Origin: Escherichia coli
GTDB taxonomy: Bacteria; Pseudomonadota; Gammaproteobacteria; Enterobacterales; Enterobacteriaceae
Assembly (NCBI RefSeq): GCF_003334315.1
Contig: NZ_QOWR01000014.1
Length of the DNA stretch: 64,000 nucleotides
Direction: 5' to 3' (one strand)
Below the pieces are notes generated by a model that was not told the origin of the DNA, did no database searches, and saw nothing but the letters and a program-made list of their open reading frames with translations. Made by a program: the position numbers and the translations under genes. Shown piece after piece: positions 82 to 28,288 of the stretch. Numbering within the stretch: position 1 is the first letter of the stretch; the number at the start of each line of letters is the position of its first letter.

Positions 82-846
82 CTAATTCTTTCGTTGCTCC
101 AGACGACGCAGAGAACGCTCACGGCGGCTCTCTTCACGACTTCTGTCGAGCAAAATTTCTTCGATAAAGGCCAGATGGCGATGCGATGCTTCGCGCGCTT
201 CTTCCGGCTTACCGGCCATAATCGCTTCAAATATGCGGGTGCGGTGACTACTCACCAGCGGCAGCATCTCGCGACGCGAATAGAGCAATTCGAAGTTCTG
301 GCGGACATTCTGGGCCAACATCGGCTCCATACACCTTAGCAGATGAAGCAGAACCACATTGTGGGCCGCTTCAGTGACAGCAATCTGATACTGGAGTACG
401 GCGTTTGATTCCGCGTCCAGATCGCCAGACTGCTGCGCCAGCTCTATGGCGTGGTGGAGTTCACGGATGCGTTCCTTGTCTTCATCGGTACTACGCAGCG
501 CGGCGTAATAAGCGGCGATACCTTCCAGGGCGTGTCGTGTTTCGAGCAAGTCATACTGTGACTCAGGATGGTCGGAGAGCAGCTCCACCAGCGGATCGCT
601 GAAGCTTTGCCATAGGCTGCTCTGGACAAAAGTGCCGCCACCCTGGCGACGAAGCAACAAGCCCTTCGCTTCGAGACGTTGAATCGCCTCACGCAAGGAG
701 GGACGGGAGACGTCAAACTGTTTTGCCAGTTCGCGTTCCGGTGGGAGTTTTTCGCCCGGGCGGAGAGTGCCTTCGAGGATCAAAAACTCCAGTTGCTGCT
801 CAATCACATCGGAGAGTTTTGGTTGGCGGATTTTGCTGTAGGCCAT
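82..846 (-). CDS. pdhR: Pyruvate dehydrogenase complex repressor PdhR (GntR family), 254 aa
   Basis: ORF 82..879 translation contains the PdhR sequence ([18 protein letters not shown]...); start trimmed to the internal ATG at 844-846 to give 254 aa. Confidence 0.93.
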
Positions 847-877
847 GAGTTCCTGTCTTAAGCCACTTGCCGAAGTC

Positions 878-894
878 AATTGGTCTTACCAATT
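878..894. promoter_or_regulatory. PdhR operator-like perfect palindrome AATTGGT-ctt-ACCAATT upstream of pdhR
   Basis: Read directly: aattggtcttaccaatt, 7-bp perfect arms around a 3-bp centre, 32-48 bp upstream of the pdhR start; matches the PdhR box consensus as I recall it. Confidence 0.7.
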
Positions 895-1386
895 TCATGT
901 CTGTGACGCTAAAGTAACAAAGTATTCACCTTATGTCCATACAGGTTTTGATTGAAATCATGAAACTGTGCACATTTTAACAACTTGACATATATAACGT
1001 TTCAAAGTTGTAACTATGCACAAATGTAGACTTTACGTAGGAAAGGAGTTTTTTAACGATTATTAAACTATAAAAATCCGAATTGAACCGATTCACTTAC
1101 CAATTTTGTGATTTTTAATTCAATTAAAACGAATTTAAATTCATTCTACATATTGAGAGGGATTGAGGCTGAGCTTTACAAACGGTTTCTTTTTAAGCAA
1201 CTCATCTTCAACCATGCATAAAGCGGGTGCATTCGCTGCCGCATACCATTATTCTTGATCTGACGGAAGTCTTTTTGTAACAATTCAAACTTCTTTGATG
1301 TAAACAAATTAATACAACAAACGGAATTGCAAACTTACACACGCATCACTGCGTAGATCAAAAAAACAACCACCGCACGAGGTTTC

Positions 1387-2760
1387 ATGATGGAAGGTCA
1401 ACAGCACGGCGAGCAGCTAAAGCGCGGCCTTAAAAACCGCCATATTCAGCTTATCGCGCTGGGTGGCGCGATAGGGACCGGGTTATTCCTGGGTAGCGCC
1501 TCCGTAATACAGTCCGCAGGGCCAGGGATTATCCTGGGTTACGCCATTGCTGGTTTTATCGCCTTTCTGATCATGCGTCAGCTGGGTGAAATGGTGGTCG
1601 AAGAACCTGTCGCAGGCTCCTTTAGCCACTTTGCTTATAAATACTGGGGCAGTTTTGCCGGTTTCGCCTCTGGCTGGAACTACTGGGTACTGTACGTTTT
1701 AGTTGCCATGGCTGAGCTGACTGCCGTGGGTAAATACATTCAGTTCTGGTATCCGGAAATCCCCACCTGGGTTTCTGCCGCCGTATTCTTTGTGGTGATT
1801 AACGCCATCAACCTGACCAACGTTAAAGTGTTTGGCGAGATGGAGTTCTGGTTTGCCATTATCAAAGTTATCGCGGTGGTCGCGATGATCATCTTCGGCG
1901 GCTGGCTGCTATTCAGTGGCAACGGCGGCCCGCAGGCGACCGTTAGCAACCTGTGGGATCAGGGTGGTTTCCTGCCGCACGGCTTCACCGGGCTGGTGAT
2001 GATGATGGCGATTATCATGTTCTCGTTCGGTGGTCTGGAACTGGTGGGGATCACCGCAGCAGAAGCTGATAACCCGGAGCAAAGTATACCGAAAGCAACT
2101 AACCAGGTTATCTACCGCATCCTGATTTTCTATATTGGTTCGTTAGCCGTTCTGCTCTCACTGATGCCGTGGACCCGCGTTACCGCCGATACCAGTCCGT
2201 TTGTGCTGATCTTCCACGAGTTAGGCGATACCTTTGTGGCGAATGCGCTGAACATCGTGGTACTGACTGCGGCGCTCTCCGTGTACAACAGCTGCGTATA
2301 TTGCAACAGCCGTATGCTGTTTGGTCTGGCACAACAGGGTAATGCGCCAAAAGCGCTGGCGTCTGTCGATAAACGTGGTGTACCAGTAAATACCATTCTG
2401 GTGTCTGCACTGGTAACGGCGTTGTGCGTACTGATTAACTACCTTGCCCCAGAGTCCGCTTTCGGACTGTTAATGGCGCTAGTGGTATCTGCACTGGTAA
2501 TCAACTGGGCGATGATTAGCCTGGCGCATATGAAATTCCGTCGCGCCAAGCAGGAACAAGGCGTGGTAACTCGCTTCCCTGCTCTGCTTTATCCGCTGGG
2601 TAACTGGATCTGCCTGCTGTTTATGGCGGCGGTACTGGTGATTATGCTGATGACCCCAGGAATGGCGATTTCGGTATACCTGATCCCGGTATGGCTGATC
2701 GTGTTAGGTATCGGCTATCTGTTTAAAGAGAAAACCGCCAAAGCCGTAAAAGCGCATTAA
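1387..2760 (+). CDS. aroP: Aromatic amino acid:H+ symporter AroP, 457 aa
   Basis: Full-length ORF (MMEGQQHGEQLKRGLKNRHIQLIALGGAIGTGLF...), APC-family permease, divergent from pdhR. Confidence 0.95.
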   Translation: MMEGQQHGEQLKRGLKNRHIQLIALGGAIGTGLFLGSASVIQSAGPGIILGYAIAGFIAFLIMRQLGEMVVEEPVAGSFSHFAYKYWGSFAGFASGWNYWVLYVLVAMAELTAVGKYIQFWYPEIPTWVSAAVFFVVINAINLTNVKVFGEMEFWFAIIKVIAVVAMIIFGGWLLFSGNGGPQATVSNLWDQGGFLPHGFTGLVMMMAIIMFSFGGLELVGITAAEADNPEQSIPKATNQVIYRILIFYIGSLAVLLSLMPWTRVTADTSPFVLIFHELGDTFVANALNIVVLTAALSVYNSCVYCNSRMLFGLAQQGNAPKALASVDKRGVPVNTILVSALVTALCVLINYLAPESAFGLLMALVVSALVINWAMISLAHMKFRRAKQEQGVVTRFPALLYPLGNWICLLFMAAVLVIMLMTPGMAISVYLIPVWLIVLGIGYLFKEKTAKAVKAH

Positions 2761-2802: not shown

Positions 2803-3657
2803 TTACACCAACGCCCCGTAAATCGTCAGTAGTGCAATCACCACCACGACCACGAACGAGGTTTTCTTCGCCATTGAAACCGCTGCCTTCGGCGTCTCCA
2901 CCTTATCGACATGCGGTTCACGCGCCAGAGAGAACTGCGCCAGACGCGTTAACACCTGATACTGCGAAGTATGGAAATCACCCAGCGAAGCAAACCAGGC
3001 CGGTAACGCTTTCTCACCATGACCGATCAAGGCATATACCACACCCGCAAGACGAACCGGCACCCAATCCAGTACATGAAGCACGGCATCAATGCCGGAC
3101 TGTAAACGATGATGCGGCGTCTGATATCGCGCCAGCCAGTATTGCCATGCACGCAAAAACGCATACCCCATCAGCGTAACGGGTCCCCAGGTTCCCCCCA
3201 CAATCAGCCAGAACAGCGGTGCAAGATAAAAACGAAAGTTAATCCACAGCAATGCATTTTGCAGCTCACGCAAATACTCACGTTCGTCGCAGCCTGCCGG
3301 GACGCCGTGAATCATGGTGAGTTCGCCAGCCATCGTGGCACGGGCATGGCTATCATTACGTGAAGCAGCTGTCAGATAAGCATGATAATGAAGACGAACT
3401 TTACCTGCGCCAATACACAGCAAACCAATCAGCAGCCACACCAGTAGCGTGGGAACGTTGAACAATACTCCCTGCAATGCGCGTAACAGTAAAAAAGTCA
3501 CGCCCATCGCAATAATGGTCATGCCTAACGTGCGCCCGAGAGAAAAATGTTTCACCCGCCGAAAGAACGCTTCAAGACGATGATCAAGCTGCCAGTGCTC
3601 GCCCAACTTAAACAGGCGCTCGAAAATTAACACCAGTAAGGTTGTAAATAGCGTCAT
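2803..3657 (-). CDS. ampE: Inner-membrane protein AmpE, 284 aa
   Basis: ORF 2803..3696 contains [26 protein letters not shown]...; start set at the ATG at 3655-3657, which overlaps the ampD stop (ATGA). Confidence 0.9.
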
Positions 3658-4205
3658 GTTGTCTCCTTGCTGACCAGCACACGAAACCGTACCCAATCAA
3701 ATGCAGGACCGGGATCGGTTTTCCGATCCGGCGCAATATCACAATGGCCCGTCATGTTTTTAGCGATATCCGGATAGCAATCAATCAGTGCCCGCGTAAC
3801 CGCCGCAAGCTGTTGATACTGCGCATCGGTATACGCCAGCGTATCGGTGCCTTCAAGCTCAATCCCAATAGAAAAATCATTGCAGCGTTCGCGCCCCTGA
3901 TACTGAGAGACTCCCGCATGCCATGCACGTTTATCGAAAGGAACATACTGGACTATTTCACCATCACGGCGAATCAAACAGTGAGCGGAGACGCGCAAAT
4001 GGGCGATCTCAGCAAAGAAAGGATGTGCCTGCGGATCAATAGTTCCAGTGAATAATGCGTCGATCCACGGACCGCCAAACTCGCCTGGCGGCAGGCTAAT
4101 ATTGTGCACCACCAGCAGGGTGGGTGTTTCGTCATCCGGGCGGCAATCGTAATGTGGTGAGGGAACGCGGCGCGCGCCAACCAGCCACCCCTGTTCTAAC
4201 AACAT
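3654..4205 (-). CDS. ampD: 1,6-anhydro-N-acetylmuramyl-L-alanine amidase AmpD, 183 aa
   Basis: Full-length [48 protein letters not shown]...; forms the ampDE operon. Confidence 0.95.
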
Positions 4206-4232
4206 GCAGGATCTCCTTATATGTGGTGCTAA

Positions 4233-5186
<954 letters not shown>

Positions 5187-5388
5187 TAGTTGACAGATTT
5201 ATCCGCTCCATCGCGGGCGGATAATCTCCCCTTCCCCAACTTTCTTCGTAACGCCTCGCAAATTTCTTGTCTTTCGCTGCAACGAAATAAAAAACCTCGG
5301 AATCTGCTTTCCCGTTTCGTTTTTTGCCCCTCGCCTGTGCTGATGGCGTTTGCCAAAGTAGCGCCAACCAAATCAAGGAGCGAAACAG

Positions 5389-5829
5389 ATGGACAAGCAA
5401 CGCGGTTTTACACTTATCGAACTGATGGTGGTTATTGGCATCATTGCCATTTTAAGCGCCATTGGTATTCCCGCTTATCAAAACTACCTGCGCAAAGCCG
5501 CACTCACCGACATGCTACAAACCTTTGTGCCTTACCGTACCGCCGTAGAGTTGTGCGCGCTGGAACATGGTGGATTAGATACCTGCGACGGTGGCAGCAA
5601 TGGCATTCCCTCGCCTACCACCACCCGCTATGTTTCAGCCATGAGTGTGGCAAAGGACGTGGTGTCGCTGACCGGGCAAGAAAGTCTCAATGGGCTAAGC
5701 GTCGTCATGACACCGGGTTGGGATAACGCAAACGGCGTCACCGGCTGGACGCGCAACTGCAATATTCAAAGTGACAGCGCATTGCAGCAAGCCTGCGAAG
5801 ATGTCTTCCGCTTTGATGACGCCAACTAA
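5389..5829 (+). CDS. ppdD: Type IV prepilin (major pilin) PpdD, 146 aa
   Basis: N-terminus MDKQRGFTLIELMVVIGIIAILSAIGIPAYQNY is a class III leader with the G|FTLIE prepilin-peptidase site and a hydrophobic N-terminal helix. Confidence 0.95.
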   Translation: MDKQRGFTLIELMVVIGIIAILSAIGIPAYQNYLRKAALTDMLQTFVPYRTAVELCALEHGGLDTCDGGSNGIPSPTTTRYVSAMSVAKDVVSLTGQESLNGLSVVMTPGWDNANGVTGWTRNCNIQSDSALQQACEDVFRFDDAN

Positions 5830-5838
5830 GGAGCGGCA

Positions 5839-7224
5839 ATGAATATTCCACAGCTCACTGCCCTGTGTCTGCGTTATCATGGAGTCTTGCTGGATGCCAG
5901 CGAAGAGGTGGTTCATGTTGCGGTAGTCGATGCACCTTCGCATGAGCTACTGGACGCATTGCATTTCGCTACCACCAAACGTATTGAGATCACCTGCTGG
6001 ACGCGCCAACAAATGGAAGGTCACGCCAGTCGCACACAACAGACATTGCCCGTAGCTGTTCAGGAGAAGCATCAGCCCAAAGCAGAGTTGCTAACTCGAA
6101 CGTTACAATCTGCGCTGGAACAACGCGCGTCTGATATTCATATCGAACCAGCGGACAATGCCTACCGCATCCGCTTGCGTATCGACGGCGTATTGCATCC
6201 TTTACCGGATGTTTCACCGGATGCCGGAGTCGCATTAACCGCCAGATTAAAAGTGCTGGGAAACCTGGATATTGCGGAACATCGCCTGCCGCAGGACGGG
6301 CAATTCACTGTCGAACTGGCAGGAAACGCCGTCTCATTTCGTATTGCGACCTTACCATGTCGGGGTGGTGAAAAGGTGGTATTAAGGTTGTTACAGCAGG
6401 TGGGTCAGGCACTGGATGTCAACACGCTTGGAATGCAGCCGTTACAACTGGCGGACTTTGCTCATGCCTTGCAACAACCACAGGGACTGGTGCTGGTAAC
6501 TGGCCCTACCGGCAGCGGCAAAACGGTCACGCTTTATAGTGCCCTGCAAAAGCTGAATACCGCTGACATTAATATTTGTAGCGTCGAAGATCCAGTTGAG
6601 ATCCCCATAGCCGGACTAAACCAGACGCAAATCCATCCGCGTGCCGGACTCACCTTTCAGGGCGTTTTGCGTGCGTTATTGCGCCAGGATCCTGACGTCA
6701 TCATGATCGGAGAGATCCGCGATGGCGAAACAGCAGAGATCGCTATTAAAGCGGCGCAAACTGGTCACCTGGTGTTGTCTACCCTACACACTAATTCCAC
6801 CTGCGAAACGCTGGTACGTTTACAGCAAATGGGGGTCGCCCGCTGGATGCTATCATCGGCGCTTACGCTGGTAATAGCCCAGCGTCTGGTACGCAAACTT
6901 TGCCCACATTGTCGCCGGCAGCAAGGGGAGCCCATCCACATTCCAGACAATGTATGGCCATCGCCGCTGCCCCACTGGCAGGCACCCGGTTGTGTACATT
7001 GCTACCACGGTTTTTATGGTCGTACGGCCTTATTTGAAGTTCTGCCCATAACGCCGGTCATTCGTCAGCTTATTTCCGCTAATACCGACGTTGAATCGCT
7101 GGAAACGCACGCACGACAGGCGGGTATGCGTACGCTTTTTGAAAACGGCTGCCTGGCCGTAGAGCAAGGCTTAACCACCTTTGAAGAGTTAATCCGCGTA
7201 CTGGGGATGCCGCATGGCGAGTAA
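5839..7224 (+). CDS. hofB: Type IV pilus assembly ATPase HofB (GspE/PilB family), 461 aa
   Basis: Walker A GPTGSGKT and a C-terminal CxxC...CxxC tetracysteine motif are visible in the translation. Confidence 0.95.
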   Translation: MNIPQLTALCLRYHGVLLDASEEVVHVAVVDAPSHELLDALHFATTKRIEITCWTRQQMEGHASRTQQTLPVAVQEKHQPKAELLTRTLQSALEQRASDIHIEPADNAYRIRLRIDGVLHPLPDVSPDAGVALTARLKVLGNLDIAEHRLPQDGQFTVELAGNAVSFRIATLPCRGGEKVVLRLLQQVGQALDVNTLGMQPLQLADFAHALQQPQGLVLVTGPTGSGKTVTLYSALQKLNTADINICSVEDPVEIPIAGLNQTQIHPRAGLTFQGVLRALLRQDPDVIMIGEIRDGETAEIAIKAAQTGHLVLSTLHTNSTCETLVRLQQMGVARWMLSSALTLVIAQRLVRKLCPHCRRQQGEPIHIPDNVWPSPLPHWQAPGCVHCYHGFYGRTALFEVLPITPVIRQLISANTDVESLETHARQAGMRTLFENGCLAVEQGLTTFEELIRVLGMPHGE

Positions 7225-8416
7225 GCAACTCTGGCGCTGGCATGGCATAACCGGCGACGGCAATGCGCAAGATGGGATGCTATGGGCAGAGAGCCGTACT
7301 TTACTGCTTATGGCACTACAGCAACAGATGGTTACCCCACTAAGCCTGAAGCGAATCGCCATCAATTCTGCGCAGTGGCGAGGAGATAAAAGCGCGGAAG
7401 TCATTCATCAACTGGCGACGCTACTCAAAGCAGGGTTAACGCTTTCTGAAGGGCTGGCTCTGCTGGCGGAACAGCATCCCAGTAAGCAATGGCAAGCGTT
7501 GCTGCAATCGCTGGCGCACGATCTCGAACAGGGCATTGCTTTTTCCAATGCCTTATTACCCTGGTCAGAGGTATTTCCGCCGCTCTATCAGGCGATGATC
7601 CGCACGGGTGAACTGACCGGTAAGCTGGATGAATGCTGCTTTGAACTGGCGCGTCAGCAAAAAGCCCAGCGTCAGTTGACCGACAAAGTGAAATCAGCGT
7701 TACGTTATCCCATCATCATTTTAGCGATGGCAATCATGGTGGTTGTGGCAATGCTGCATTTTGTTCTGCCGGAGTTTGCCGCTATCTATAAGACCTTCAA
7801 CACCCCACTACCGGCACTAACGCAGGGGATCATGACGCTGGCAGACTTTAGTGGCGAATGGAGCTGGCTGCTGGTGTTGTTCGGCTTTCTGCTGGCGATA
7901 GCCAATAAGTTGCTGATGCGCCGACCGACCTGGCTTATAGTGCGGCAGAAATTGCTGTTACGCATCCCGATTATGGGTTCACTGATGCGGGGACAAAAAC
8001 TCACGCAGATCTTTACGATTCTGGCGCTGACACAAAGTGCAGGCATTACTTTTTTACAGGGCGTAGAGAGCGTCAGAGAAACAATGCGCTGCCCGTACTG
8101 GGTGCAACTTCTGACACAAATCCAGCACGATATCAGTAACGGTCAACCCATCTGGCTGGCGCTAAAAAATACCGGTGAGTTTAGCCCGCTCTGTTTGCAA
8201 TTAGTGAGAACAGGAGAGGCATCCGGCTCTCTGGATCTCATGTTAGACAACCTCGCCCATCATCATCGGGAAAACACAATGGCGCTGGCGGATAACCTCG
8301 CAGCCTTACTGGAACCGGCGTTGCTGATCATAACGGGAGGAATTATTGGTACGCTGGTGGTGGCAATGTATCTGCCAATTTTCCATTTAGGCGATGCGAT
8401 GAGTGGGATGGGATAA
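7214..8416 (+). CDS. hofC: Type IV pilus inner-membrane platform protein HofC (GspF/PilC family), 400 aa
   Basis: Full-length ORF overlapping the hofB 3' end by 11 nt; polytopic membrane protein. Confidence 0.93.
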   Translation: MASKQLWRWHGITGDGNAQDGMLWAESRTLLLMALQQQMVTPLSLKRIAINSAQWRGDKSAEVIHQLATLLKAGLTLSEGLALLAEQHPSKQWQALLQSLAHDLEQGIAFSNALLPWSEVFPPLYQAMIRTGELTGKLDECCFELARQQKAQRQLTDKVKSALRYPIIILAMAIMVVVAMLHFVLPEFAAIYKTFNTPLPALTQGIMTLADFSGEWSWLLVLFGFLLAIANKLLMRRPTWLIVRQKLLLRIPIMGSLMRGQKLTQIFTILALTQSAGITFLQGVESVRETMRCPYWVQLLTQIQHDISNGQPIWLALKNTGEFSPLCLQLVRTGEASGSLDLMLDNLAHHHRENTMALADNLAALLEPALLIITGGIIGTLVVAMYLPIFHLGDAMSGMG

Positions 8417-8444
8417 CGCTGGCGTGTTGCTCCACGCCAGCGTT
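8415..8444. terminator. 12-bp perfect-stem hairpin between convergent hofC and guaC
   Basis: aacgctggcgtg-ttgctc-cacgccagcgtt; no strong U-tract on either strand, so terminator function is inferred from position only. Confidence 0.5.
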
Positions 8445-8450
8445 GGGAGA

Positions 8451-9494
8451 TTACAGGTTGTTGAAGATGCGGTTTTCTTGTTCCTGCACACGAATAAACG
8501 TGGTGCGCTTGGTCAGCTCTTTCAGGCGTGAAGCCCCAACGTATGTACAAGCTGAACGCAGGCCGCCCAAAATATCTCGCGCGGTATTTTCAACCGGGCC
8601 TCGCAGCGGCAGCTTAACGGTTTTACCTTCTGCTGCGCGATATTCCGCAACGCCGCCAACGTGACGTTTCATCGCAGACTCGGAGCTCATGCCGTAGAAC
8701 AGCATAAATTTCTCGCCGTTCTCCTCAACGATGCGACCGCCGCTCTCTTCGTGGCCCGCCAGCATGCCGCCAAGCATGACGAAATCGGCACCGCCGCCAA
8801 AGGCTTTCGCCACATCGCCCGGCGTGGTGCAGCCACCATCGCTGACGATCATTCCGCCCAGACCGTGCGCAGCATCGGCACATTCGATTACCGCAGAAAG
8901 TTGCGGATAACCGACGCCTGTTTTGACGCGAGTTGTACAAACAGAACCTGGGCCAATGCCAACTTTAACGATATCGGCACCTGAGAGGATAAGCTCCTCA
9001 CACATTTCACCAGTCACTACGTTACCAGCACAAATGGTTTTGGTCGGCCACGCTTCACGCGCTTTCGCAACGAACTGCACGAAGTGTTCGGAATAACCAT
9101 TCGCCACGTCAATACAAACGAAGTTTAATGCCGGGTTCAGGTCGAGAATCTGTTTAGTTTTTTCGAAATCCGCATCAGACGTACCGGTAGAAACCATCAC
9201 ATGTTTCAGCACATCAGCGGAAGAATTGTTGATAAACGCTTGCCACTCTTCGACAGAATAGTGTTTATGCACAGCAGTCAAAATATCAAAAGAAGCCAGC
9301 GCAGAGGCCATAGAAAATGTGCCTACGGTGTCCATATTTGCGGCGATAATCGGCACGCCGGACCAGCTCTGACCTGAATGTTTGAAGGTGAATTGACGTT
9401 CCAGTTCAACATCGGAACGGCTTTTAAGAGTGGAGCGTTTAGGGCGGATGAGAACGTCTTTAAAACCTAACTTCAGATCTTCTTCAATACGCAT
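8451..9494 (-). CDS. guaC: GMP reductase GuaC, 347 aa
   Basis: Full-length [38 protein letters not shown]...; IMPDH/GMPR family. Confidence 0.95.
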
Positions 9495-9718
9495 GTGCGG
9501 ATTCCTGGGGTTAATGGCTATAAGGGTAAGAGCGCAACTCCAGTGACGCTATCATACGCACTAATCAATGCGGCGCAAGACTGCGAAATTGTCTTTTTTT
9601 ACGCTACAATCCCATAAATTTACCTGGTAAATAGTGAGCGAACGTTTCATCAATTTCGCTTTCGTGCACTCATTTTTAACGTTTTGATAATCATGATGAA
9701 TTCCCGGGAATATAAATT

Positions 9719-10339
9719 ATGAGGTATATAGTTGCCTTAACGGGAGGCATTGGCAGTGGCAAGAGTACCGTTGCCAATGCGTTTGCTGATCTCGGAATTA
9801 ACGTCATTGATGCCGATATTATTGCGCGTCAGGTGGTTGAACCAGGTGCACCTGCGCTACATGCCATTGCTGATCACTTTGGCGCTAACATGATTGCTGC
9901 TGATGGAACATTGCAGCGCCGGGCCTTGCGCGAGCGGATCTTCGCCAACCCGGAAGAGAAAAACTGGCTTAACGCCCTGCTGCATCCGCTGATTCAGCAA
10001 GAGACGCAACACCAGATCCAGCAAGCTACTTCCCCCTATGTACTGTGGGTTGTGCCATTGCTGGTAGAAAACTCACTGTATAAAAAAGCGAATCGAGTGC
10101 TGGTGGTGGATGTCAGCCCAGAAACGCAACTTAAGCGCACCATGCAGCGCGATGATGTAACTCGCGAGCATGTCGAACAAATCCTTGCTGCTCAGGCAAC
10201 GCGCGAAGCCCGCCTTGCCGTGGCAGATGACGTCATTGATAATAACGGCGCACCGGATGCTATCGCATCGGATGTTGCCCGCCTGCACGCACACTATTTG
10301 CAGCTTGCGTCGCAGTTTGTCTCACAGGAAAAACCGTAA
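9719..10339 (+). CDS. coaE: Dephospho-CoA kinase CoaE, 206 aa
   Basis: [22 protein letters not shown]... with P-loop; stop overlaps the zapD start (TAATG). Confidence 0.95.
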
Positions 10340-11082
10340 TGCAGACCCAGGTCCTTTTTGAACATCCACTAAATGAAAAAATGCGTACATGGCTGCGCAT
10401 TGAGTTTTTGATTCAGCAACTCACCGTTAATTTACCCATCGTTGACCACGCTGGCGCGCTGCATTTCTTCCGTAATGTCAGTGAATTACTGGATGTTTTC
10501 GAGCGCGGCGAAGTCCGCACTGAGCTGTTGAAAGAACTTGACCGGCAGCAACGTAAACTCCAGACCTGGATTGGCGTGCCTGGCGTGGACCAGAGCCGTA
10601 TTGAAGCATTAATTCAGCAGTTAAAAGCGGCGGGGAGCGTATTAATTTCCGCGCCGCGTATCGGGCAATTTCTGCGTGAAGATCGTTTGATTGCTCTGGT
10701 GCGTCAGCGACTGAGCATCCCAGGCGGCTGTTGCAGCTTTGATTTACCTACATTGCACATTTGGCTGCATCTACCCCTGGCGCAGCGCGACAGCCAGGTA
10801 GAAACCTGGATTGCCAGCCTGAACCCGCTCACCCAGGCACTTACCATGGTGCTGGATTTAATTCGCCAGTCGGCCCCCTTCCGTAAACAAACCAGCCTGA
10901 ATGGTTTTTATCAGGATAACGGTGGCGATGCCGACTTGCTGCGCCTGAATCTGTCGCTCGATTCACAGCTTTATCCGCAAATTTCCGGACATAAGAGCCG
11001 TTTTGCCATTCGTTTTATGCCGCTGGACACTGAAAACGGACAGGTACCGGAACGTCTGGATTTCGAACTGGCCTGTTGCTAA
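10339..11082 (+). CDS. zapD: Cell-division factor ZapD (YacF), 247 aa
   Basis: Full-length [30 protein letters not shown]..., translationally coupled to coaE. Confidence 0.93.
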
Positions 11083-11295: not shown

Positions 11296-11500
<205 letters not shown>

Positions 11501-11504
11501 TGAC

Positions 11505-11894
11505 CTACAGACGTTTAAGCTTCGCAATTACCGGTTCATTGGCTGGCGGAAAATCATCGGCATTAAGACCGACCAGCGACATCCACTCACCGGGTTGCCC
11601 TTCTTTACCCCACGGCTCCCCTTCCCAGCGTTCGACCAGCCAAAACCACAGTGTTATATGCCTGTCCGGGAATTCATATTCCAGTTTTTCAAATAGCGAA
11701 AAATGTTGGGGGGTAATCCCGACTTCTTCCTGAAGTTCACGCACCACCGCCTGTTCCGGCGTTTCACCCATTTCAATTTTACCGCCGGGAAACTCCAGTT
11801 TATTCGCCATGTGCGCATCTGCTGCGCGACGCGTTATAAAGATTTCATTGTTCTCGTTGCGAATAATACCTACCGCAATTTGCAGCTTTTTCAT
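11505..11894 (-). CDS. mutT: 8-oxo-dGTP diphosphatase MutT (Nudix), 129 aa
   Basis: MKKLQIAVGIIRNENNEIFITRRAADAHMANKLEFPGGKIEMGETPEQAVVRELQEEVG... with Nudix box. Confidence 0.95.
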   Translation of the reverse strand: MKKLQIAVGIIRNENNEIFITRRAADAHMANKLEFPGGKIEMGETPEQAVVRELQEEVGITPQHFSLFEKLEYEFPDRHITLWFWLVERWEGEPWGKEGQPGEWMSLVGLNADDFPPANEPVIAKLKRL

Positions 11895-11908: not shown

Positions 11909-11936
11909 AAAAAAGGCGCAGAATCCTGCGCCTTTT
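11909..11936 (-). terminator. Rho-independent terminator downstream of secA
   Basis: Minus strand reads ggcgcag-gatt-ctgcgcc followed by a U-run, 20 nt after the secA stop. Confidence 0.7.
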
Positions 11937-11953
11937 ACTTCAACAGTTAGCTT

Positions 11954-14659
11954 TTATTGCAGGCGGCCATGGCACTGCTTGTATTTTTTACCAGAACCGC
12001 ACGGGCAAGGATCGTTACGTCCTACTTTGCGCTCTCCGGTTTGCGCCGCCAGTGCAGCTGCGGCTGCAGAGTCGTCATCCTGATGGCTAAGCTGCTGCAT
12101 TTGCGCTAAACGCTCGGCTTCCATACGACGCTGTTGTTCCAGCTCCTCAACCTCTTCAGGCATACGTACCTGAACTTTGCTCAGCGTACTGATAACTTCA
12201 TATTTCAACGACTCCAGCATCGCTGCAAACATGGAGAACGATTCACGTTTGTATTCCTGCTTCGGATCTTTCTGTGCGTAGCCACGCAGGTGGATACCCT
12301 GACGCAGATAGTCCATCGCTGCCAGGTGCTCTTTCCACAGGGAGTCAAGCGTTTGCAGCATGACGCCTTTCTCGAAGTGACGCATCATCTCAGCACCAAC
12401 CACTTCTTCTTTACGCTGATACACTTCGATGGACTGCGCCAGAATGCGCTCACGCAGCGTCTCTTCATGCAGTTCTGGTTCTTTATCCAGCCACTCGGCA
12501 ATTGGCAAATCGAGGTCGAAATCGTTCTTCAGACGTTCCTGCAGCCCCGGAATATCCCACATTTCTTCCAGCGACTGTGGTGGAATGTAGGCATCAATGG
12601 TCGCTTTGAACACATCTTCACGAATGCTGTTAATGGTTTCGCTCACATCGCTGACATCCAACAGTTCGTTACGCTGGGAGTAAATGGCGCGACGCTGATC
12701 GTTAGCCACGTCATCATATTCCAGCAGTTGCTTACGAATGTCGAAGTTACGGCTTTCAACTTTACGCTGGGCGTTGGCAATCGCTTTAGTCACCCACGGG
12801 TGTTCAATGGCTTCGCCTGGCTTCATACCCAGTTTACGCATCATGCCGGATACTCGGTCGGAAGCAAAAATACGCATCAGCGCATCTTCCATCGACAGGT
12901 AGAAACGGGAAGAACCAGCATCCCCCTGACGACCAGAACGACCGCGCAACTGGTTATCGATACGACGGGATTCGTGACGCTCGGTACCGATGATATGCAG
13001 GCCACCTGCTTCCAGTACCGCATCGTGACGTACCTGCCAGTCGGCTTTAATTTTTTCAATTTGCTCTGCGGTCGGATTTTCCAGCGCGGCAACTTCTGCC
13101 TGCCAGCTACCACCGAGCACAATATCTGTACCACGACCCGCCATATTGGTCGCGATAGTCACCGCAGCCGGATAACCTGCCTGAGCAACAATCGCCGCTT
13201 CGTTGGCGTGGAATTTGGCGTTCAGGACGTTGTGCTTAATACCGGCTTTGGTCAGTTCGTTTGACACCAGCTCCGATTTTTCGATGGAGATAGTACCCAC
13301 CAGCACCGGCTGGCCTTTCGCAGTACGTTCTTTGATATCTTCAATGATCGCCTGAATTTTTTCCGCTTCAGTCATGTAGACCAGGTCCGGCAGATCTTTA
13401 CGAATCATTGGACGGTTGGTCGGAACAACGACGGTATCCAGCTTGTAGATTGAGCTAAATTCGAAAGCTTCGGTATCAGCAGTACCGGTCATCCCCGCCA
13501 GTTTTTCATACAGACGGAAGTAGTTCTGGAAGGTGATCGAAGCCAGCGTTTGGTTTTCGTTCTGGATCTGCACACCTTCTTTCGCTTCCACAGCCTGGTG
13601 CAGACCATCGGACCAGCGACGGCCCTGCATGGTACGACCGGTGTGTTCGTCAACGATGATAACTTCACCATCTTTAACGATGTAGTCGACGTCACGGGTA
13701 AACAGCGCATGAGCGCGCAGCGCCGCCGTTACGTGGTGCATCAGCATGATGTTGGCCGGAGAGTACAGAGACTCCCCTTCATCCATGATGCCCTCTTTCA
13801 CCAGCAGTTCTTCAATCAGCACCAGACCACGTTCGGTCAGGTTCACCTGGCGAGATTTTTCGTCCACCGAGAAGTGGCCTTCGCCCTGGAAGGTTTCGGA
13901 GTCTTCTTTTTCCTGACGGATCAGGTGCGGAATAATTTTATTCACGCGTTTATACATTTCCGAGCTGTCTTCTGCCGGGCCGGAAATGATCAGCGGTGTA
14001 CGCGCTTCATCGATCAGGATGGAGTCCACTTCGTCCACCAGCGCATAGTGCAGTTTACGCTGTACACGTTCTTCAGGGCTGAACGCCATGTTGTCGCGCA
14101 GGTAGTCAAAGCCGTATTCGTTGTTCGTACCGTAAGTGATGTCAGCTGCGTAAGCTTCGCGCTTTGCCGGTGCTGGCATGCCCGGCAGGTTGATACCGAC
14201 AGTCAGGCCAAGGAATTCAAACAGCGGACGGTTGTTTTCGGCGTCACGTTGCGCCAGGTAGTCGTTGACGGTAACTACGTGCACGCCTTTACCGGTTAGT
14301 GCGTTCAGGTAAGCAGGCAGCGTTGCGGTCAGGGTTTTTCCTTCACCGGTACGCATTTCGGCGATGCAGCGTTCGTTAAGAACCATACCGCCGAGTAACT
14401 GAACGTCGAAGTGACGCATACCAAAGACGCGCTTACTTGCCTCACGTACCACGGCGAAAGCTTCCGGGATCAGATTTTCCAGCACTTCGCCTTTTTCCAG
14501 ACGTGCACGAAACTCTGCGGTTTTCCCTTTCAGTTCTTCGTCGGAGAGTTTTTCCATCTCCGGTTCCATGGCATTGATGATGTTGACCACTTTGCGCATC
14601 CGGCGCAGGGTGCGATCGTTACGACTACCGAAAACTTTAGTTAACAATTTGATTAGCAT
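11954..14659 (-). CDS. secA: Preprotein translocase ATPase SecA, 901 aa
   Basis: Full-length [50 protein letters not shown]...; C-terminal zinc-binding [14 protein letters not shown]. Confidence 0.97.
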
Positions 14660-16481: not shown

Positions 16482-17633
16482 TTAATCAGCTTGCTTACGC
16501 AGGAATGCTGGGATATCCAGATAATCCGGCTCTTTCGCAGTTTGCGGCGCATTGTCATTCACGACTTTAGCAACCGGCTTCTGCTCCTGGGTCAGCGGAG
16601 CCATCCCATGCTGCTGGTAGCGATCCATCACTGGCTGCTGAACCTGCTTATTGGTCACCAGAGTGATTTCAGGACGTTTGTCCATGCCGATACCTGTCGC
16701 AACAACGGTTACGCGCAGCTCGTCATTCATATCCGGGTCAAGAGAAGTACCGATAACCACAGTCGCGTTGTCGGAAGCAAATGCACGGATGGTGTTACCT
16801 ACCGTTTCGAACTCATCCAGACGCAGGTCGAAGCCCGCCGTGATGTTAACCAGCACGCCGCGCGCGCCAGACAGGTCGATATCTTCCAGCAGCGGAGAAG
16901 AGATAGCCATTTCAGCAGCTTCTTCCGCACGGTCTTCACCGCTCGCCACGCCAGAACCCATCATTGCGTAGCCCATCTCAGACATTACGGTGCGTACGTC
17001 TGCAAAGTCCACGTTCATCAAACCCGGACGAGTAATCAGTTCAGCGATACCTTGCACAGCGCCTTTCAGTACATCGTTCGCTGCGCCAAACGCATCCAGC
17101 AGGGAGATACCGCGGCCCAGAACTTTCAGCAGTTTGTCGTTCGGGATAGTGATCAGAGAGTCCACATGCTTGGACAGTTCAGTGATCCCCTGCTCCGCGA
17201 ATGCCATACGCTTCTTGCCTTCAAAGTTGAAAGGCTTAGTGACGACAGCAACGGTCAGGATACCCAAATCTTTTGCCACTTCAGCGACGACTGGTGCTGC
17301 ACCTGTACCGGTACCACCACCCATACCCGCAGCAATAAAGACCATGTCTGCACCTTCCAGCGCCGCACGCAATGCATCGCGATCCTCATCAGCCGCATTG
17401 CGGCCAACTTCTGGATTAGCGCCAGCGCCCAGTCCTTTGGTGATACCGCTACCGATTTGAATCGTCTGTCCAACCGCTGTTTTACGCAGCGCTTGTGCAT
17501 CGGTATTTACCGCGAAGAATTCAACACCTTCAATGCGCTCGCGCACCATGTGTTCAACAGCATTACCGCCGCCGCCGCCGACGCCGATGACTTTAATCAC
17601 CGCGTCATTGGTAAGTTCCATTGGTTCAAACAT
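16482..17633 (-). CDS. ftsZ: Cell-division tubulin homologue FtsZ, 383 aa
   Basis: [30 protein letters not shown]... with the GGGTGTG tubulin signature. Confidence 0.97.
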
Positions 17634-17693
17634 AGTTTCTCTCCGATTTGTGCCTGTCGCCTGAGGCCGTAATCATCGTCGGCCTCATAAAAA

Positions 17694-18956
17694 TTAAAAC
17701 TCTTTTCGCAGCCAACTATTGAGTCGCTTGATCCACGAGCCAACTGATGCTGTAACACGTTTTTCTACTTCAGCTTCACCGTTAAGATGTGACTCTTTCC
17801 CATAGTGAAGCAATCCCACCGCCGTCGAATAATACGGCTCCTGAGCATAATCCGTTAAACCGGTAATGTTCAGCGGCGCGCCGATACGCACTTGCGTATG
17901 AAACACGCGCTGAGCACAGGCTGCAAGACCTTCGATCTGCGCTGCGCCACCGGTTAATACAATGCCTGCCGCCAGGTGATGTTTAACCCCTTGTTGGCGA
18001 AGCTTTTCCTGCAACTGCAATATCTCTTCGTTGACCAGGTTGAGCAGCTCGGTATAGCGCGGCTCGATCACCTCTGCCAGTGTCTGACGTTGCAGACTCC
18101 GTGGCGGACGACCACCTACGCTCGGCACTTCCACGCTCTCATCTTTTCCAACGATGGAACCCAGCGCACAACCGTGGCGAACTTTAATCGCTTCGGCGTC
18201 GCTTGGCGGCGTGCCAAAGGCGTAAGCGATATCACTGGTCACGACATTGCCAGCATAAGGAATTACCTTAGTGTGGCGCAATGCCCCACCGGTATAAACG
18301 GCGATATCCATTGTACCACCACCGATATCGACGACGCAGACACCCAGTTCACGTTCATCTTCCGTCAATACCGAATAACTTGATGCCAGTCCGGCAAATA
18401 TCAGTTGGTCAACTTTCAGCCCACAACGTTCAACCGCTTTGACGATGTTTTTCGCCATATCGTTGTGACATGTGATCAGGTGCACTTTTGCCTGCATCCG
18501 CACGCCCGAAAGTCCTACCGGATTCTTGATCCCTTCCTGATAGTCAATCGCATACTCTTGCGGGATCACATGCAGCACACGATGCTCATCGCGCACACGC
18601 ACCGATTTCGCGGTATGGACGACGTTTTCCACATCTTCTTGCGTTACTTCTTCTTCAGAAATAGGCACCATACCAATTTCATTCTGGCAGCTGATATGCT
18701 TACCAGAAAGCGCCAGATATACCGAAGAGATCTGACAATCTGCCATCAATTCTGCCTGGTCAATGGCGCGCTGTACGCACTTGACCACGGATTCGAGGTC
18801 GTTCACCCCGCCTTTATCCATACCACGCGACGGGCAGCTGCCCACGCCAATGATATTGACCATACCGTCGGGCAGAACTTCCCCTACTAAAGCGGCAACC
18901 TTCGCGGTACCAATCTCCAGTCCTACTACCAGTTTTCTGTCCGTCGCCTTGATCAT
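17694..18956 (-). CDS. ftsA: Cell-division protein FtsA (actin-like ATPase), 420 aa
   Basis: Full-length [42 protein letters not shown]... Confidence 0.96.
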
Positions 18957-26936: not shown

Positions 26937-28288
26937 GTCCCATTCTCCTGTAAAGCGCGTACTACCTCTTCCATGGCGGCACTACGTGAACCCTTAACTA
27001 AAATCGTAATTACCTGTTGCTCAGCAATCAGTAATTTAAGACGCGTAATTAACGCAGTTTTATCAGCAAAATGTTCGCCAACGCCGCTGGCGGTGCTGAT
27101 AGCATGGCTTTGTTTACCCACGCTTAACACGCGGTCAATACCAGCAGCTTTTGCCGCCTCGCCCACCTGTACATGGCAGGCTTCGCTTTCAGCGCCCAGT
27201 TCCGCCATATCGCCCACCACCAGCACGCGGTAGCCCGGCATTTCAGCCAGTACCTGGACTGCTGCAGTCATTGAACCGACATTGGCGTTGTAGGAGTCGT
27301 CGAGCAGCAACTGGTTTTCTGCCAGTTGGATGGGGAACAGACGGCCTGGAACAGCTTTCAGATTTGCCAGCCCCGCTTTGATAGCATCAAGCGTTGCGCC
27401 CACGGACATGGAGAGCGCAGCGGCTGCCAGCGCATTCGCAATATTGTGACGCCCCGGCAACGGCAGCAGAACATCGACGCTACCGGTTGGGGTTTGTAGG
27501 GTAAATTCCATACCGTGCGAGGTCACATGGATATTGGTGGCGGTGAAATCGCTGTTGGCGGCATTGGGTGAGAAACGCCACACTTTGCGTGAGCCAATTA
27601 CGCTCTGCCAGTTCAGCCAGTCGTTGTTGTCGGCGTTCATAATGGCGATACCGTTTTCCGGCAGGCCGCTAAAGATTTCACCTTTCGCTTTCGCGACACC
27701 CGCAAGCGAGCCAAAACCTTCCAGATGCGCCGCTGCCAGGTTGTTGACCAGCGCAGCTTCCGGGCGAGTCAGACTCACAGTCCAGGCTATTTCGCCCTGA
27801 TGGTTCGCGCCAAGTTCAATAACTGCGTAATCGTATTCCGGCGTTAAGCGCAACAGCGTCATCGGTACACCGATGTCGTTGTTGAGATTGCCTGCCGTAT
27901 AAAGCGTGTTGCCGCACTGGCTTAAAATCGCCGCCGTCATCTCTTTAACGGAGGTTTTGCCGGAGGACCCCGTCAGAGCAACCACGCGCGCCGGAACTTG
28001 CTGGCGAACCCATGCAGCCAGTTCACCAAACGCCAGACGCGTATCCTTGACGATTAACTGCGGCAGGTCGATGTCCAGCGGACGGCTAACCAGTAGTGCG
28101 CCTGCGCCGCCAGCTTTCGCCTGGTCGGCAAAATCGTGGGCATCAAAACGTTCGCCTTTCAGGGCAACAAACAGGCAGCCCGGCGTCAGTTTTCGGGTAT
28201 CAGTGGTTACAGCATCAAGGGTGATATCTGCACCTTGCAGTTCACCGTTGAGAATGTCGGTAAGTTGGCTAAGGGTTACGCTAATCAT
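26930..28288 (-). CDS. murF: UDP-MurNAc-tripeptide--D-Ala-D-Ala ligase MurF, 452 aa
   Basis: Full-length [37 protein letters not shown]... Confidence 0.96.

Follow-up and report, generated by a model that had tools for sequence, protein, structure and literature searches.

Positions 5389..8416 of the window, the whole 64-kb stretch of Escherichia coli DNA analysed here, almost certainly hold the canonical chromosomal ppdD-hofB-hofC operon of E. coli, known as b0108-b0106 in K-12 and as hcpABC in EHEC. As the original prediction had anticipated, the locus is already known and well described, and in this strain it is intact and ordinary apart from one substitution in the pilin, G90D. The silence of the operon already has a published mechanism, namely a Sxy-dependent CRP-S promoter, and a set of conserved leader blocks upstream of ppdD offers a concrete place to seek the natural inducer of the pilus in commensal E. 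coli. The features of the locus are collected in Table 1.

Table 1 Genes and sequence elements of the ppdD-hofB-hofC locus (window coordinates)
Feature	Position	Strand	Description	Basis
ppdD (hcpA)	5389..5829	+	Type IVa major prepilin, 146 aa; 6-residue leader, cleavage after Gly6	ORF listing, NCBIfam, motifs
hofB (hcpB)	5839..7224	+	Hexameric assembly ATPase, PilB/GspE family, 461 aa	ORF listing, NCBIfam, motifs
hofC (hcpC)	7214..8416	+	Inner-membrane platform protein, PilC/GspF family, 400 aa	ORF listing, NCBIfam, motifs
CRP-S core TTCGT-N6-TCGCA	5245..5260		Non-canonical CRP site needing Sxy/TfoX	
TG.AA (5278..5282) and A-rich TAAAAA (5288..5293)	5278..5293	+	Candidate weak core promoter	Inference
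Leader blocks GAA-N6-TTCCCG (5300..5314); U/T tract to TTTTTG (5315..5326); CTCG; GTTTGCCAAAGTAGCGCCA (5346..5364)	5300..5366	+	Conserved blocks	Alignments, including 29 species
Shine-Dalgarno AAGGAG of ppdD	5375..5380	+	Invariant or near-invariant in 29 species	Read from sequence
G->A SNP	5657 (K-12 117281)	+	PpdD G90D (mature G84D), beta1-beta2 turn A-K-G	
Perfect 13-bp inverted repeat, 6-nt loop	8414..8445		Fills the 34-nt gap between convergent hofC and guaC	

The three open reading frames together span the segment on the plus strand, between nadC and guaC. They had been described as full length, and at 146, 461 and 400 codons' worth of protein they are; no internal stop was found in any of them on comparison with K-12. 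The hofB ATG lies 9 nt past the ppdD stop, which an AAGGAG motif overlaps, and the last 11 nt of hofB are shared with hofC, a junction layout that appears typical of a single translationally coupled operon. Gene order (nadC-ppdD-hofB-hofC-guaC), gene lengths and junctions are those of K-12 MG1655 (b0108, b0107, and b0106). Furthermore, the K-12 sequence is matched at every base by hofB, hofC, and the 202-bp nadC-ppdD intergenic region, while ppdD differs at one nucleotide (window position 5657), giving G90D. Judging from sparse SNPs across the window, the DNA comes from a K-12-like natural lineage of phylogroup A, not from K-12. The inverted repeat downstream of hofC folds at -23.2 kcal/mol (z = -3.97), and none of 200 shuffles was equally stable; it is likely a bidirectional terminator or a 3'-end stabiliser. 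No U-run follows it, and the consensus terminator scan left it uncalled because it lacks a T-run. No Rfam family matched within 5187..8450.

Protein profiles and motifs agree with these assignments, and no result speaks against the identification. PpdD has a class III signal peptide, with the short basic leader MDKQRG ending in Gly, then FTLIELMVVIGIIAIL, with Phe+1, Glu+5, and a hydrophobic alpha1-N helix; the predicted cleavage site G|FTLIE is thus present as MDKQRG|FTLIE. It scored 35.9 bits against TIGR02532 IV_pilin_GFxxxE (cutoff 16.3) and 265.6 bits against NF007862, the prepilin peptidase-dependent pilin (cutoff 138, residues 1-145). Its cysteines number exactly four, at precursor positions 56/66/124/136 (mature 50/60/118/130), and these positions match the two disulfides, mature C50-C60 and C118-C130, published for the enterobacterial T4a pilin subclass; the bonds themselves are predicted. 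HofB carries the full set of secretion-ATPase motifs, i.e., Walker A (GPTGSGKT, 222), an Asp box, Walker B (VIMIGE, 287), a His box (TLHT, 315), and a tetracysteine zinc motif of the CxxC...CxxC type (CPHC at 355 and CVHC at 385), as well as a full-length match to NF007755 (823.3 bits, cutoff 617, residues 2-460). Against TIGR02538 PilB it reached 485.8 bits, below the cutoff of 675.65, which reflects a separate subfamily rather than another function. Since HofB aligned to positions 160-561 of the 564 of the PilB profile, it is without the extension found at the N-terminus of long PilB proteins and is about 100 residues shorter there. HofC matched NF007861 over residues 1-399 (660.8 bits, cutoff 401) and is polytopic, with three hydrophobic regions (about 159-192, 212-236, and 361-395); PF00482 T2SSF was precomputed on identical or orthologous products. 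The intact Walker A and tetracysteine motifs of HofB and the full-length platform protein HofC of the original prediction are therefore all found in the sequence.

Comparison with hcpABC of EHEC O157:H7 (Sakai ECs_0112-0110), which the original prediction had proposed, revealed the same locus and architecture. The pilins are identical at 144 of 146 residues, the window having Asp in G90D and Thr in A121T. HofB differs by 4 amino acids (34 nt) and HofC by 10 (30 nt), and this strong synonymous excess shows that both genes are under purifying selection. In the upstream region, 8 of 202 positions are substituted, none of them in the CRP-S core, and EHEC has the CRP-S site as well as every conserved leader block. 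No sequence difference explaining EHEC pilus expression versus K-12 silence was found in the locus comparison. That homologues form pili in pathogens agrees with the literature on EHEC, whose haemorrhagic coli pili (HCP) depend on the medium and are made solely on Minca/minimal casein medium (PMC2920817; PMC2649431). The structures 6GV9 (pilus) and 6GMS (NMR) are of EHEC PpdD, so the window pilin differs from them at two residues.

The original prediction had also called all three genes intact. This holds for the reading frames and the named motifs, but not for every residue of the pilin, as ppdD is one base off K-12 and G90D falls at an otherwise invariant glycine. All 24 of the species representatives, from more than 10 genera and down to 73% identity, have Gly at residue 90, as do 129 of 131 close homologues; at the other family-invariant globular residues checked, the window pilin matches K-12. 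G90D leaves family membership untouched, as the equivalog score is far above its cutoff, but it raises the possibility of a defect in function. Given this rare substitution, intact motifs are no guarantee of a fully functional pilin in this strain. None of 5,422 complete E. coli genomes carried the allele, which occurred on about 10 draft contigs. Two of these contigs match the window base for base over 11.4-11.8 kb (11.8 kb in GCA_003334315.1), and others have different backgrounds. A sequencing artefact or a planted change was rejected, as the exact protein is in public data (P0017) and the allele sits on about 10 contigs of several backgrounds. A cluster of G->A differences from K-12 at the start of the window was likewise rejected as a sign of mutagenesis, the differences being mostly natural: in the first 18 kb, all except three are shared with the natural isolates SY3626 and TOE3.

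Placed in a tight beta1-beta2 turn, the substitution might destabilise the pilin or block its polymerisation, leaving the lineage effectively pilus-negative, with a rarely used system at an early stage of decay. We consider this unlikely, though it carries some weight. The invariance of the glycine and the rarity of the allele are what would be expected of a mildly deleterious variant, and ppdD knock-outs do arise naturally, as by IS903B in strain 74-2. Mature residue 84 follows beta1, which ends at about V81, and precedes beta2 and the T89-S93 loop. Nevertheless, E. coli has the allele in three or more backgrounds, it arose independently in a Salmonella pilin (P0033), and this recurrence indicates that it is tolerated at least transiently. 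Asp is also well suited to turn positions that favour Gly, being among the residues best tolerated there. Moreover, mature residue 84 is outside the set of residues reported to be critical for calcium binding or contacts between subunits (K30, D35, E53, H54, E92, E131, D132, R135, and D137). We infer that pilin with G90D is still assembled in this strain. Because the pilin is conserved above its own ATPase and platform and the turn glycine is invariant, the allele offers a natural way to probe the framework built from published structure and mutagenesis work.

The original prediction had pointed to the region 5187..5388 for promoter elements and had stated that the operon is poorly expressed in laboratory E. 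coli. The region contains a CRP-S site and lacks a sigma-70 consensus; within 4900..8800 no consensus sigma-70 promoter was found, against 2.8 expected. The CRP-S core is the best match within 5150..5400 to TGCGA-N6-TCGCA (8/10, versus 6/10 for the CRP-N core), so that ppdD has a CRP-S site upstream and no CRP-N site, as in the Sxy/CRP-S regulon. By itself this score is not significant, with 38 matches of at least 8/10 in the window. As 8/10 cores are this common by chance, it is conservation and published experiments that carry the assignment. Of 29 enterobacterial species, 28 retain the right half-site TCGCA, and Cameron & Redfield 2006 (PMC1635313) bandshifted a ppdD upstream fragment with CRP. 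The primers of that fragment map to 5175 and 5284, placing it at 5175..5305 with the CRP-S core inside, and the window is identical in sequence to the K-12 fragment shifted in vitro. A second CRP-S site was rejected, as the only 9/10 core in the window sits in the murF coding sequence and is hence due to chance. The TG and AA columns of the candidate core promoter are invariant in 29 species; transcription of ppdD would start at about 5290-5301, with a roughly class II geometry relative to the CRP-S centre at 5252.5.

With no usable sigma-70 consensus promoter and reliance on a weak Sxy-dependent CRP-S site, the operon is silent in ordinary culture. The literature agrees: no ppdD transcript or pilin was detectable in K-12 grown in LB or in any of the 72 ECOR strains (PMC1635313; PMC3330819). 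Plasmid-borne Sxy induced ppdD 90-fold, with absolute dependence on CRP and cAMP (PMC1635313), and sxy induction yielded processed PpdD (PMC3330819). By analogy with the identical K-12 promoter, the requirement for Sxy, CRP, and cAMP should carry over to this strain.

The leader blocks, within the roughly 90 nt that separate the ppdD start codon from the CRP-S promoter, are near-invariant across at least ten enterobacterial genera. The 144 nt upstream of the ppdD ATG are 58-73% identical between genera, versus 36-44% at the 4-fold degenerate sites of hofB and hofC. RNAalifold found no conserved RNA structure in the leader (-2.75 kcal/mol on 7 sequences; -0.73 on 29), and the blocks are explained neither by the CRP-S site, nor by a conserved RNA fold, nor by a reported sigma-54 site. 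Several other candidates were rejected. A sigma-54 -24/-12 element, TGGCGC-N5-TTGGCA at 5351..5366 on the minus strand, is oriented away from ppdD, and elements of its kind occur in the window as often as expected (7 seen, 7.1 expected); the available text of the E. coli sigma-54 ChIP-seq supplements and the gSELEX paper list no site at ppdD, nadC, or hofB. An intrinsic terminator or attenuator fared no better: the scan made a single terminator-like call (5314..5298), on the minus strand, which has no gene there, and the plus-strand stem contains an A-C mismatch, its pairing across genera being limited to GAA/TTC. A conserved upstream small ORF was dismissed because the E. coli ATG at 5344 is missing from other genera. 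The blocks could be bound by a protein or sRNA regulator not yet described, which would provide the natural signal that turns the pilus on, and separately G90D might alter fibre assembly or surface properties; this proposal is speculative and of rather low probability.

A second, post-transcriptional layer of silencing is very unlikely. Here the U-rich tract (5314..5326) would pair with the Shine-Dalgarno region (5374..5386) and block translation for as long as nothing opened the helix. In E. coli, the minimum free energy fold of 5285..5400 does contain a 13-bp helix between the two (overall -32.9 kcal/mol, z = -2.4), the duplex alone reaches -15.4 kcal/mol and was matched by 3-4 of 200 shuffles in Escherichia species, and the U-tract block is conserved across the aligned species. 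However, outside Escherichia the duplex is no better than shuffles (in Salmonella, -5.1 against a shuffle mean of -7.9), and the RNAalifold consensus contained neither this helix nor compensatory changes. The tract may also fall outside the transcript, given that the ppdD start is predicted, and Sxy induction by itself gives processed pilin (PMC3330819). As a conserved feature the helix was rejected, and what is left is a possible trait of Escherichia only.

The operon is one of four scattered clusters that jointly build the enterobacterial type IVa pilus, and it supplies pilin, ATPase, and platform only, so it is no self-sufficient system. According to the K-12 annotation of the collinear region, gspO/pppA, hofMNOPQ, and ppdAB-ygdB-ppdC are all absent from the 64-kb window, which accordingly lacks a complete type IVa pilus machine; the published reconstitution used 13 genes (bioRxiv 10.1101/856302), and in K-12 the remaining pilus genes are at other loci. 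PpdD would be made as a prepilin whose 6-residue leader is cut after Gly6 by GspO/PppA, encoded elsewhere, with N-methylation of Phe+1. A HofB hexamer docked on the inner-membrane HofC platform would then power PpdD polymerisation, and the fibre would exit via the HofQ secretin, aided by HofMNOP and the minor pilins PpdA, PpdB, YgdB, and PpdC (all outside the window). At the weak CRP-S site, cAMP-CRP would activate only with Sxy/TfoX, itself barely expressed. Once Sxy is induced, the system supports low-level DNA uptake, and EHEC grown on minimal casein medium adheres by means of this pilus. For this strain, assembly and function are taken by analogy from work on EHEC and K-12, for both of which (K-12 as a reconstituted system) extracellular fibre assembly has been published.

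Beyond E. coli, the nearest known systems are the competence and type IVa pilus operons H. influenzae pilABCD and P. aeruginosa pilA/pilBCD, along with the Sxy/TfoX-CRP-S regulons of gamma-proteobacteria. The operon has in common with them a pilin, a PilB-type ATPase, a PilC-type platform, and class III signal peptide processing, and in Haemophilus as in E. coli there is dependence on a CRP-S site and Sxy (PMC1635313). Unlike these systems, the operon here has no pilD, the prepilin peptidase gene. The second disulfide of PpdD, C50-C60 by its Cys positions, is a trait typical of the enterobacterial subclass as against the Haemophilus and Pseudomonas systems. Sxy induction brings functional DNA uptake in E. 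coli, whereas natural transformation has never been observed without an added recombinase (lambda Red).

Of 5,426 complete E. coli genomes, 5,424 carry the locus at ≥90% identity, and Salmonella, Citrobacter, and Pseudocitrobacter have it in the same gene arrangement. Identity between genera is 87-92% for PpdD and 62-74% for HofB and HofC. A natural knock-out exists in strain 74-2, where IS903B lies in the 5' end of ppdD. It is extremely improbable that the operon is an evolutionary relic, a silent and drifting remnant without present function in E. coli. No natural inducing condition is known for K-12, and both the lack of detectable pili in the 72 ECOR strains and the need for lambda Red in transformation would fit such a remnant, but the conservation data already largely refute it: the near-universal retention, the synonymous over non-synonymous excess against EHEC, and a promoter and leader conserved across genera well above neutral sites. 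DNA uptake after Sxy induction, pilus formation by EHEC, and the defect of a UPEC hofQ mutant in kidney colonisation argue against it as well.

Finally, a type II secretion module instead of a pilus, as the RefSeq name of hofB ('type II secretion system protein GspE', given by PGAP in thousands of genomes) and the matches of HofB and HofC to GspE and GspF profiles would suggest, has a practically negligible probability, because all the scores are below cutoff (TIGR02533 GspE, 457.6 against 630.25 bits; GspF, 263.7 against 424; GspG, 29.2 against 88.9), the E. coli T2SS gsp genes are at other sites, no genes for GspC, D, or H-M adjoin ppdD-hofB-hofC, and PpdD is a type IVa pilin with a solved fibre structure (6GV9).

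The locus is a known system, the ppdD-hofB-hofC type IV pilus operon (hcpABC in EHEC), and had been correctly identified in the original prediction. The three full-length genes expected there were recovered as same-strand ORFs with exactly the predicted boundaries, and every claimed motif was present: the prepilin leader MDKQRG|FTLIE in PpdD, Walker A (GPTGSGKT, 222) and the tetracysteine pair (CPHC, 355; CVHC, 385) in HofB, together with VIMIGE (287) and TLHT (315), and a full-length HofC with three hydrophobic regions. The four PpdD cysteines are placed as in the two published disulfides. Each protein exceeded the cutoff of its own NCBIfam equivalog model (PpdD, 265.6 bits, cutoff 138; HofB, 823.3, cutoff 617; HofC, 660.8, cutoff 401). 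The hofB start lies 9 nt beyond the ppdD stop codon, which is spanned by AAGGAG, and the end of hofB runs 11 nt into hofC. Between hofC and guaC, which converge, the 34 nt of intergenic DNA are occupied by a hairpin, plausibly a bidirectional 3'-end element; it is followed by no T-run on either strand and was therefore missed by the consensus scan. According to the K-12 annotation of the collinear region, none of the partner genes (gspO/pppA, hofMNOPQ, and ppdAB-ygdB-ppdC) lies in the 64-kb window.

Features of the pilus locus and of other parts of the window
Feature	Position	Strand	Details	Source or context
nadC (flank)	end at 5186	+		ORF listing of 3500..11000
CRP-S-type core TTCGT-N6-TCGCA	5245..5260		best match in upstream region	
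Leader blocks GAA-N6-TTCCCG, T-tract, GTTTGCCAAAGTAGCGCCA	5300..5366		near-invariant in at least 10 genera	
ppdD	5389..5829	+	146 aa	ORF listing of 3500..11000
hofB	5839..7224	+	461 aa	ORF listing of 3500..11000
hofC	7214..8416	+	400 aa	ORF listing of 3500..11000
Hairpin	8414..8445		perfect 13-bp inverted repeat, 6-nt loop; -23.2 kcal/mol, z = -4.0	
guaC (flank)	8451..9494	-		ORF listing of 3500..11000
AmpD A172V	3691		codon 172	difference from SY3626/TOE3
PpdD G90D	5657		codon 90	difference from SY3626/TOE3
ZapD Q147L	10778		codon 147	difference from SY3626/TOE3
naRNA4 (RF02564), REP-type	11312..11389, 11429..11505		yacG-mutT gap	Rfam
STnc40 (RF02057)	11909..11978		between mutT and secA	Rfam
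PssrA (RF02797), "plasmid-encoded Shigella sRNA A"	17625..17714	-	105.5 bits, gathering score 69	Rfam
naRNA4 (RF02564), REP-type	56178..56243		near 56.2 kb	Rfam

The region was present in 5,425 of 5,426 complete E. coli genomes and at least 80% covered in 5,424 (megablast of 5100..8500), always annotated as ppdD, gspE (= hofB), and hofC with nadC and guaC on either side. The same gene order was found in Salmonella enterica, S. bongori, Citrobacter koseri, C. rodentium, and Pseudocitrobacter. In K-12 MG1655, hofB, hofC, and the entire 202-bp nadC-ppdD intergenic region are identical to the window, and ppdD differs by one base. Comparison with the EHEC Sakai alleles confirmed the same locus, with two residue differences in PpdD, four in HofB (34 nt changes), and ten in HofC (30 nt changes); 8 of the 202 intergenic positions differ, leaving the CRP-S core unaffected. 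Over its full length, the window corresponds to approximately 58.9-122.9 kb of K-12 in reverse complement, with sparse SNPs, and its source is a natural K-12-like lineage, K-12 itself being excluded. Stretches of 11.8 kb and 11.4 kb are identical to the draft assembly GCA_003334315.1 and to a Logan contig of SRR1122540, respectively.

Judged from its shared gene order and its substitution patterns, the locus appears to be maintained rather than decaying. Substitutions in the three genes within E. coli are mostly synonymous. Between genera, the 144 nt before the ppdD start codon retain 58-73% identity, fourfold degenerate sites of hofB and hofC 36-44%, and the nadC-proximal part of the intergenic region is unalignable. 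PpdD (87-92% amino-acid identity between enterobacterial genera) is more conserved than its own ATPase and platform protein (HofB and HofC, 62-74%), the opposite of the usual pattern, in which surface pilins are most variable. A natural pilin knock-out was seen in one of the 5,426 genomes, that of strain 74-2 (NZ_CP050044.1), where IS903B (655..2096 of the extracted locus) interrupts the 5' end of ppdD at about window position 5389; the annotated gene is reduced to 405 nt, and the prepilin leader is therefore lost.

The silence of the operon and its control by Sxy and CRP are already in the literature, which supports the original reading of the operon as normally cryptic. Earlier attempts to detect the ppdD transcript failed (PMC1635313), and Sinha and Redfield found PpdD in none of 72 ECOR strains (PMC3330819). 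Plasmid-borne Sxy induces ppdD 90-fold, in absolute dependence on CRP and cAMP, and CRP binds the upstream fragment weakly but specifically (PMC1635313). Induction of sxy yields processed pilin and Sxy-dependent DNA uptake, detectable when lambda Red is supplied (PMC3330819). Inspection of the upstream region gave a matching picture: the consensus scan of 4900..8800 found no sigma-70-type promoter (2.8 expected), and a CRP-S-type core lies within the CRP bandshift fragment of Cameron and Redfield, whose primers map to 5175 and 5284. As the window holds 38 cores matching at 8/10 or better, an 8/10 score alone is not significant; the assignment of this core as the CRP-S site of ppdD relies on published experiments and conservation. 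The sole 9/10 match (TGCCA-N6-TCGCA, 27425..27440) was dismissed as a chance second site because it lies inside the murF coding sequence. Functional pili in pathogenic strains, also part of the prediction, are documented for EHEC, whose HCP pilus is made on Minca medium only (PMC2920817), and EHEC hcpABC expressed in K-12 brings PpdD to the cell surface (PMC2649431). Fibre (6GV9) and pilin (6GMS) structures have been solved.

The leader between the CRP-S site and ppdD provides the sole mildly novel lead. A DNA-pattern scan using one genome per species recovered 24 further enterobacterial species (Escherichia, Salmonella, Citrobacter, Enterobacter, Lelliottia, Pluralibacter, Phytobacter, and Kosakonia), all matches lying immediately upstream of a ppdD-type gene, plus eight chance matches in unrelated phyla. 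In the resulting 29-sequence alignment, where the search pattern itself accounts for part of the block conservation, 28 sequences retain the right half-site TCGCA, a TG.AA motif 18 nt downstream is invariant, and the GAA-N6-TTCCCG, TTTTTG, CTCG, and GTTTGCCAAAGTAGCGCCA blocks and the Shine-Dalgarno sequence AAGGAG are near-invariant. Loci picked by protein, free of this bias, carry the same blocks. In C. koseri (L008, 3644..3900), the intergenic region is enlarged to 357 bp by tandem REP/BIME-like palindromic units (GCCCGATGGCGCT...), placed upstream of the CRP-S and leader segment, which stays untouched.

These blocks are not accounted for by the CRP-S site, by an RNA fold, or by a sigma-54 site. 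Pairing of the U-tract with the Shine-Dalgarno sequence is predicted in E. coli, but in the other genera the duplex does not outperform shuffled sequences, and RNAalifold gave essentially no consensus structure (-2.75 kcal/mol for 7 sequences, -0.73 for 29; no compensatory pairs). The sigma-54-like GG-N10-GC spacing, read on the opposite strand of the strongest block, is a loose pattern at chance frequency, oriented away from ppdD, and no such site at the locus was found in the accessible sigma-54 ChIP-seq supplements or the gSELEX paper. There was neither a conserved upstream ORF before ppdD nor an Rfam match at the operon (5187..8450). That the leader holds an undescribed cis-regulatory element, or that the pilin variant described below has a functional effect, is in our view improbable.

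The one base separating ppdD from K-12 is an A at 5657, where K-12 and all 5,422 complete genomes have G; it changes PpdD Gly90 to Asp (G84D in mature numbering). None of the 5,422 genomes contains the surrounding 61-mer exactly (best match 98.4%). An artefact was rejected because the identical protein (P0017) is known from approximately 10 public contigs; both a K-12-like background and a more distant one, marked by a synonymous ppdD difference, occur among them. Gly occupies this position in 129 of 131 close homologues and all 24 species representatives, the most distant at 73% identity; a Salmonella pilin (P0033) has Asp. Asp is one of the substitutes for Gly that beta-turns tolerate comparatively well. 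The published structure description ends beta1 at about V81 and assigns T89-S93 to the beta2/beta3 loop, which places G84 in the tight beta1-beta2 turn A82-K83-G84; residue 84 is absent from the residues with a reported critical role in inter-subunit salt bridges or in calcium binding. A real functional defect seems unlikely.

Over the first 18 kb, the window differs from its nearest complete-genome relatives, SY3626 and TOE3, at exactly three positions, all non-synonymous (PpdD, AmpD, and ZapD) and all common to the draft assembly GCA_003334315.1; three of three is not statistically remarkable. Elsewhere, the PssrA match falls where ftsA meets ftsZ on the chromosome, on the strand of both genes, and probably reflects how the Rfam family was seeded rather than a plasmid element. 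In the REP region between yacG and mutT, an indel sets some strains apart (for example, comparison locus L011).
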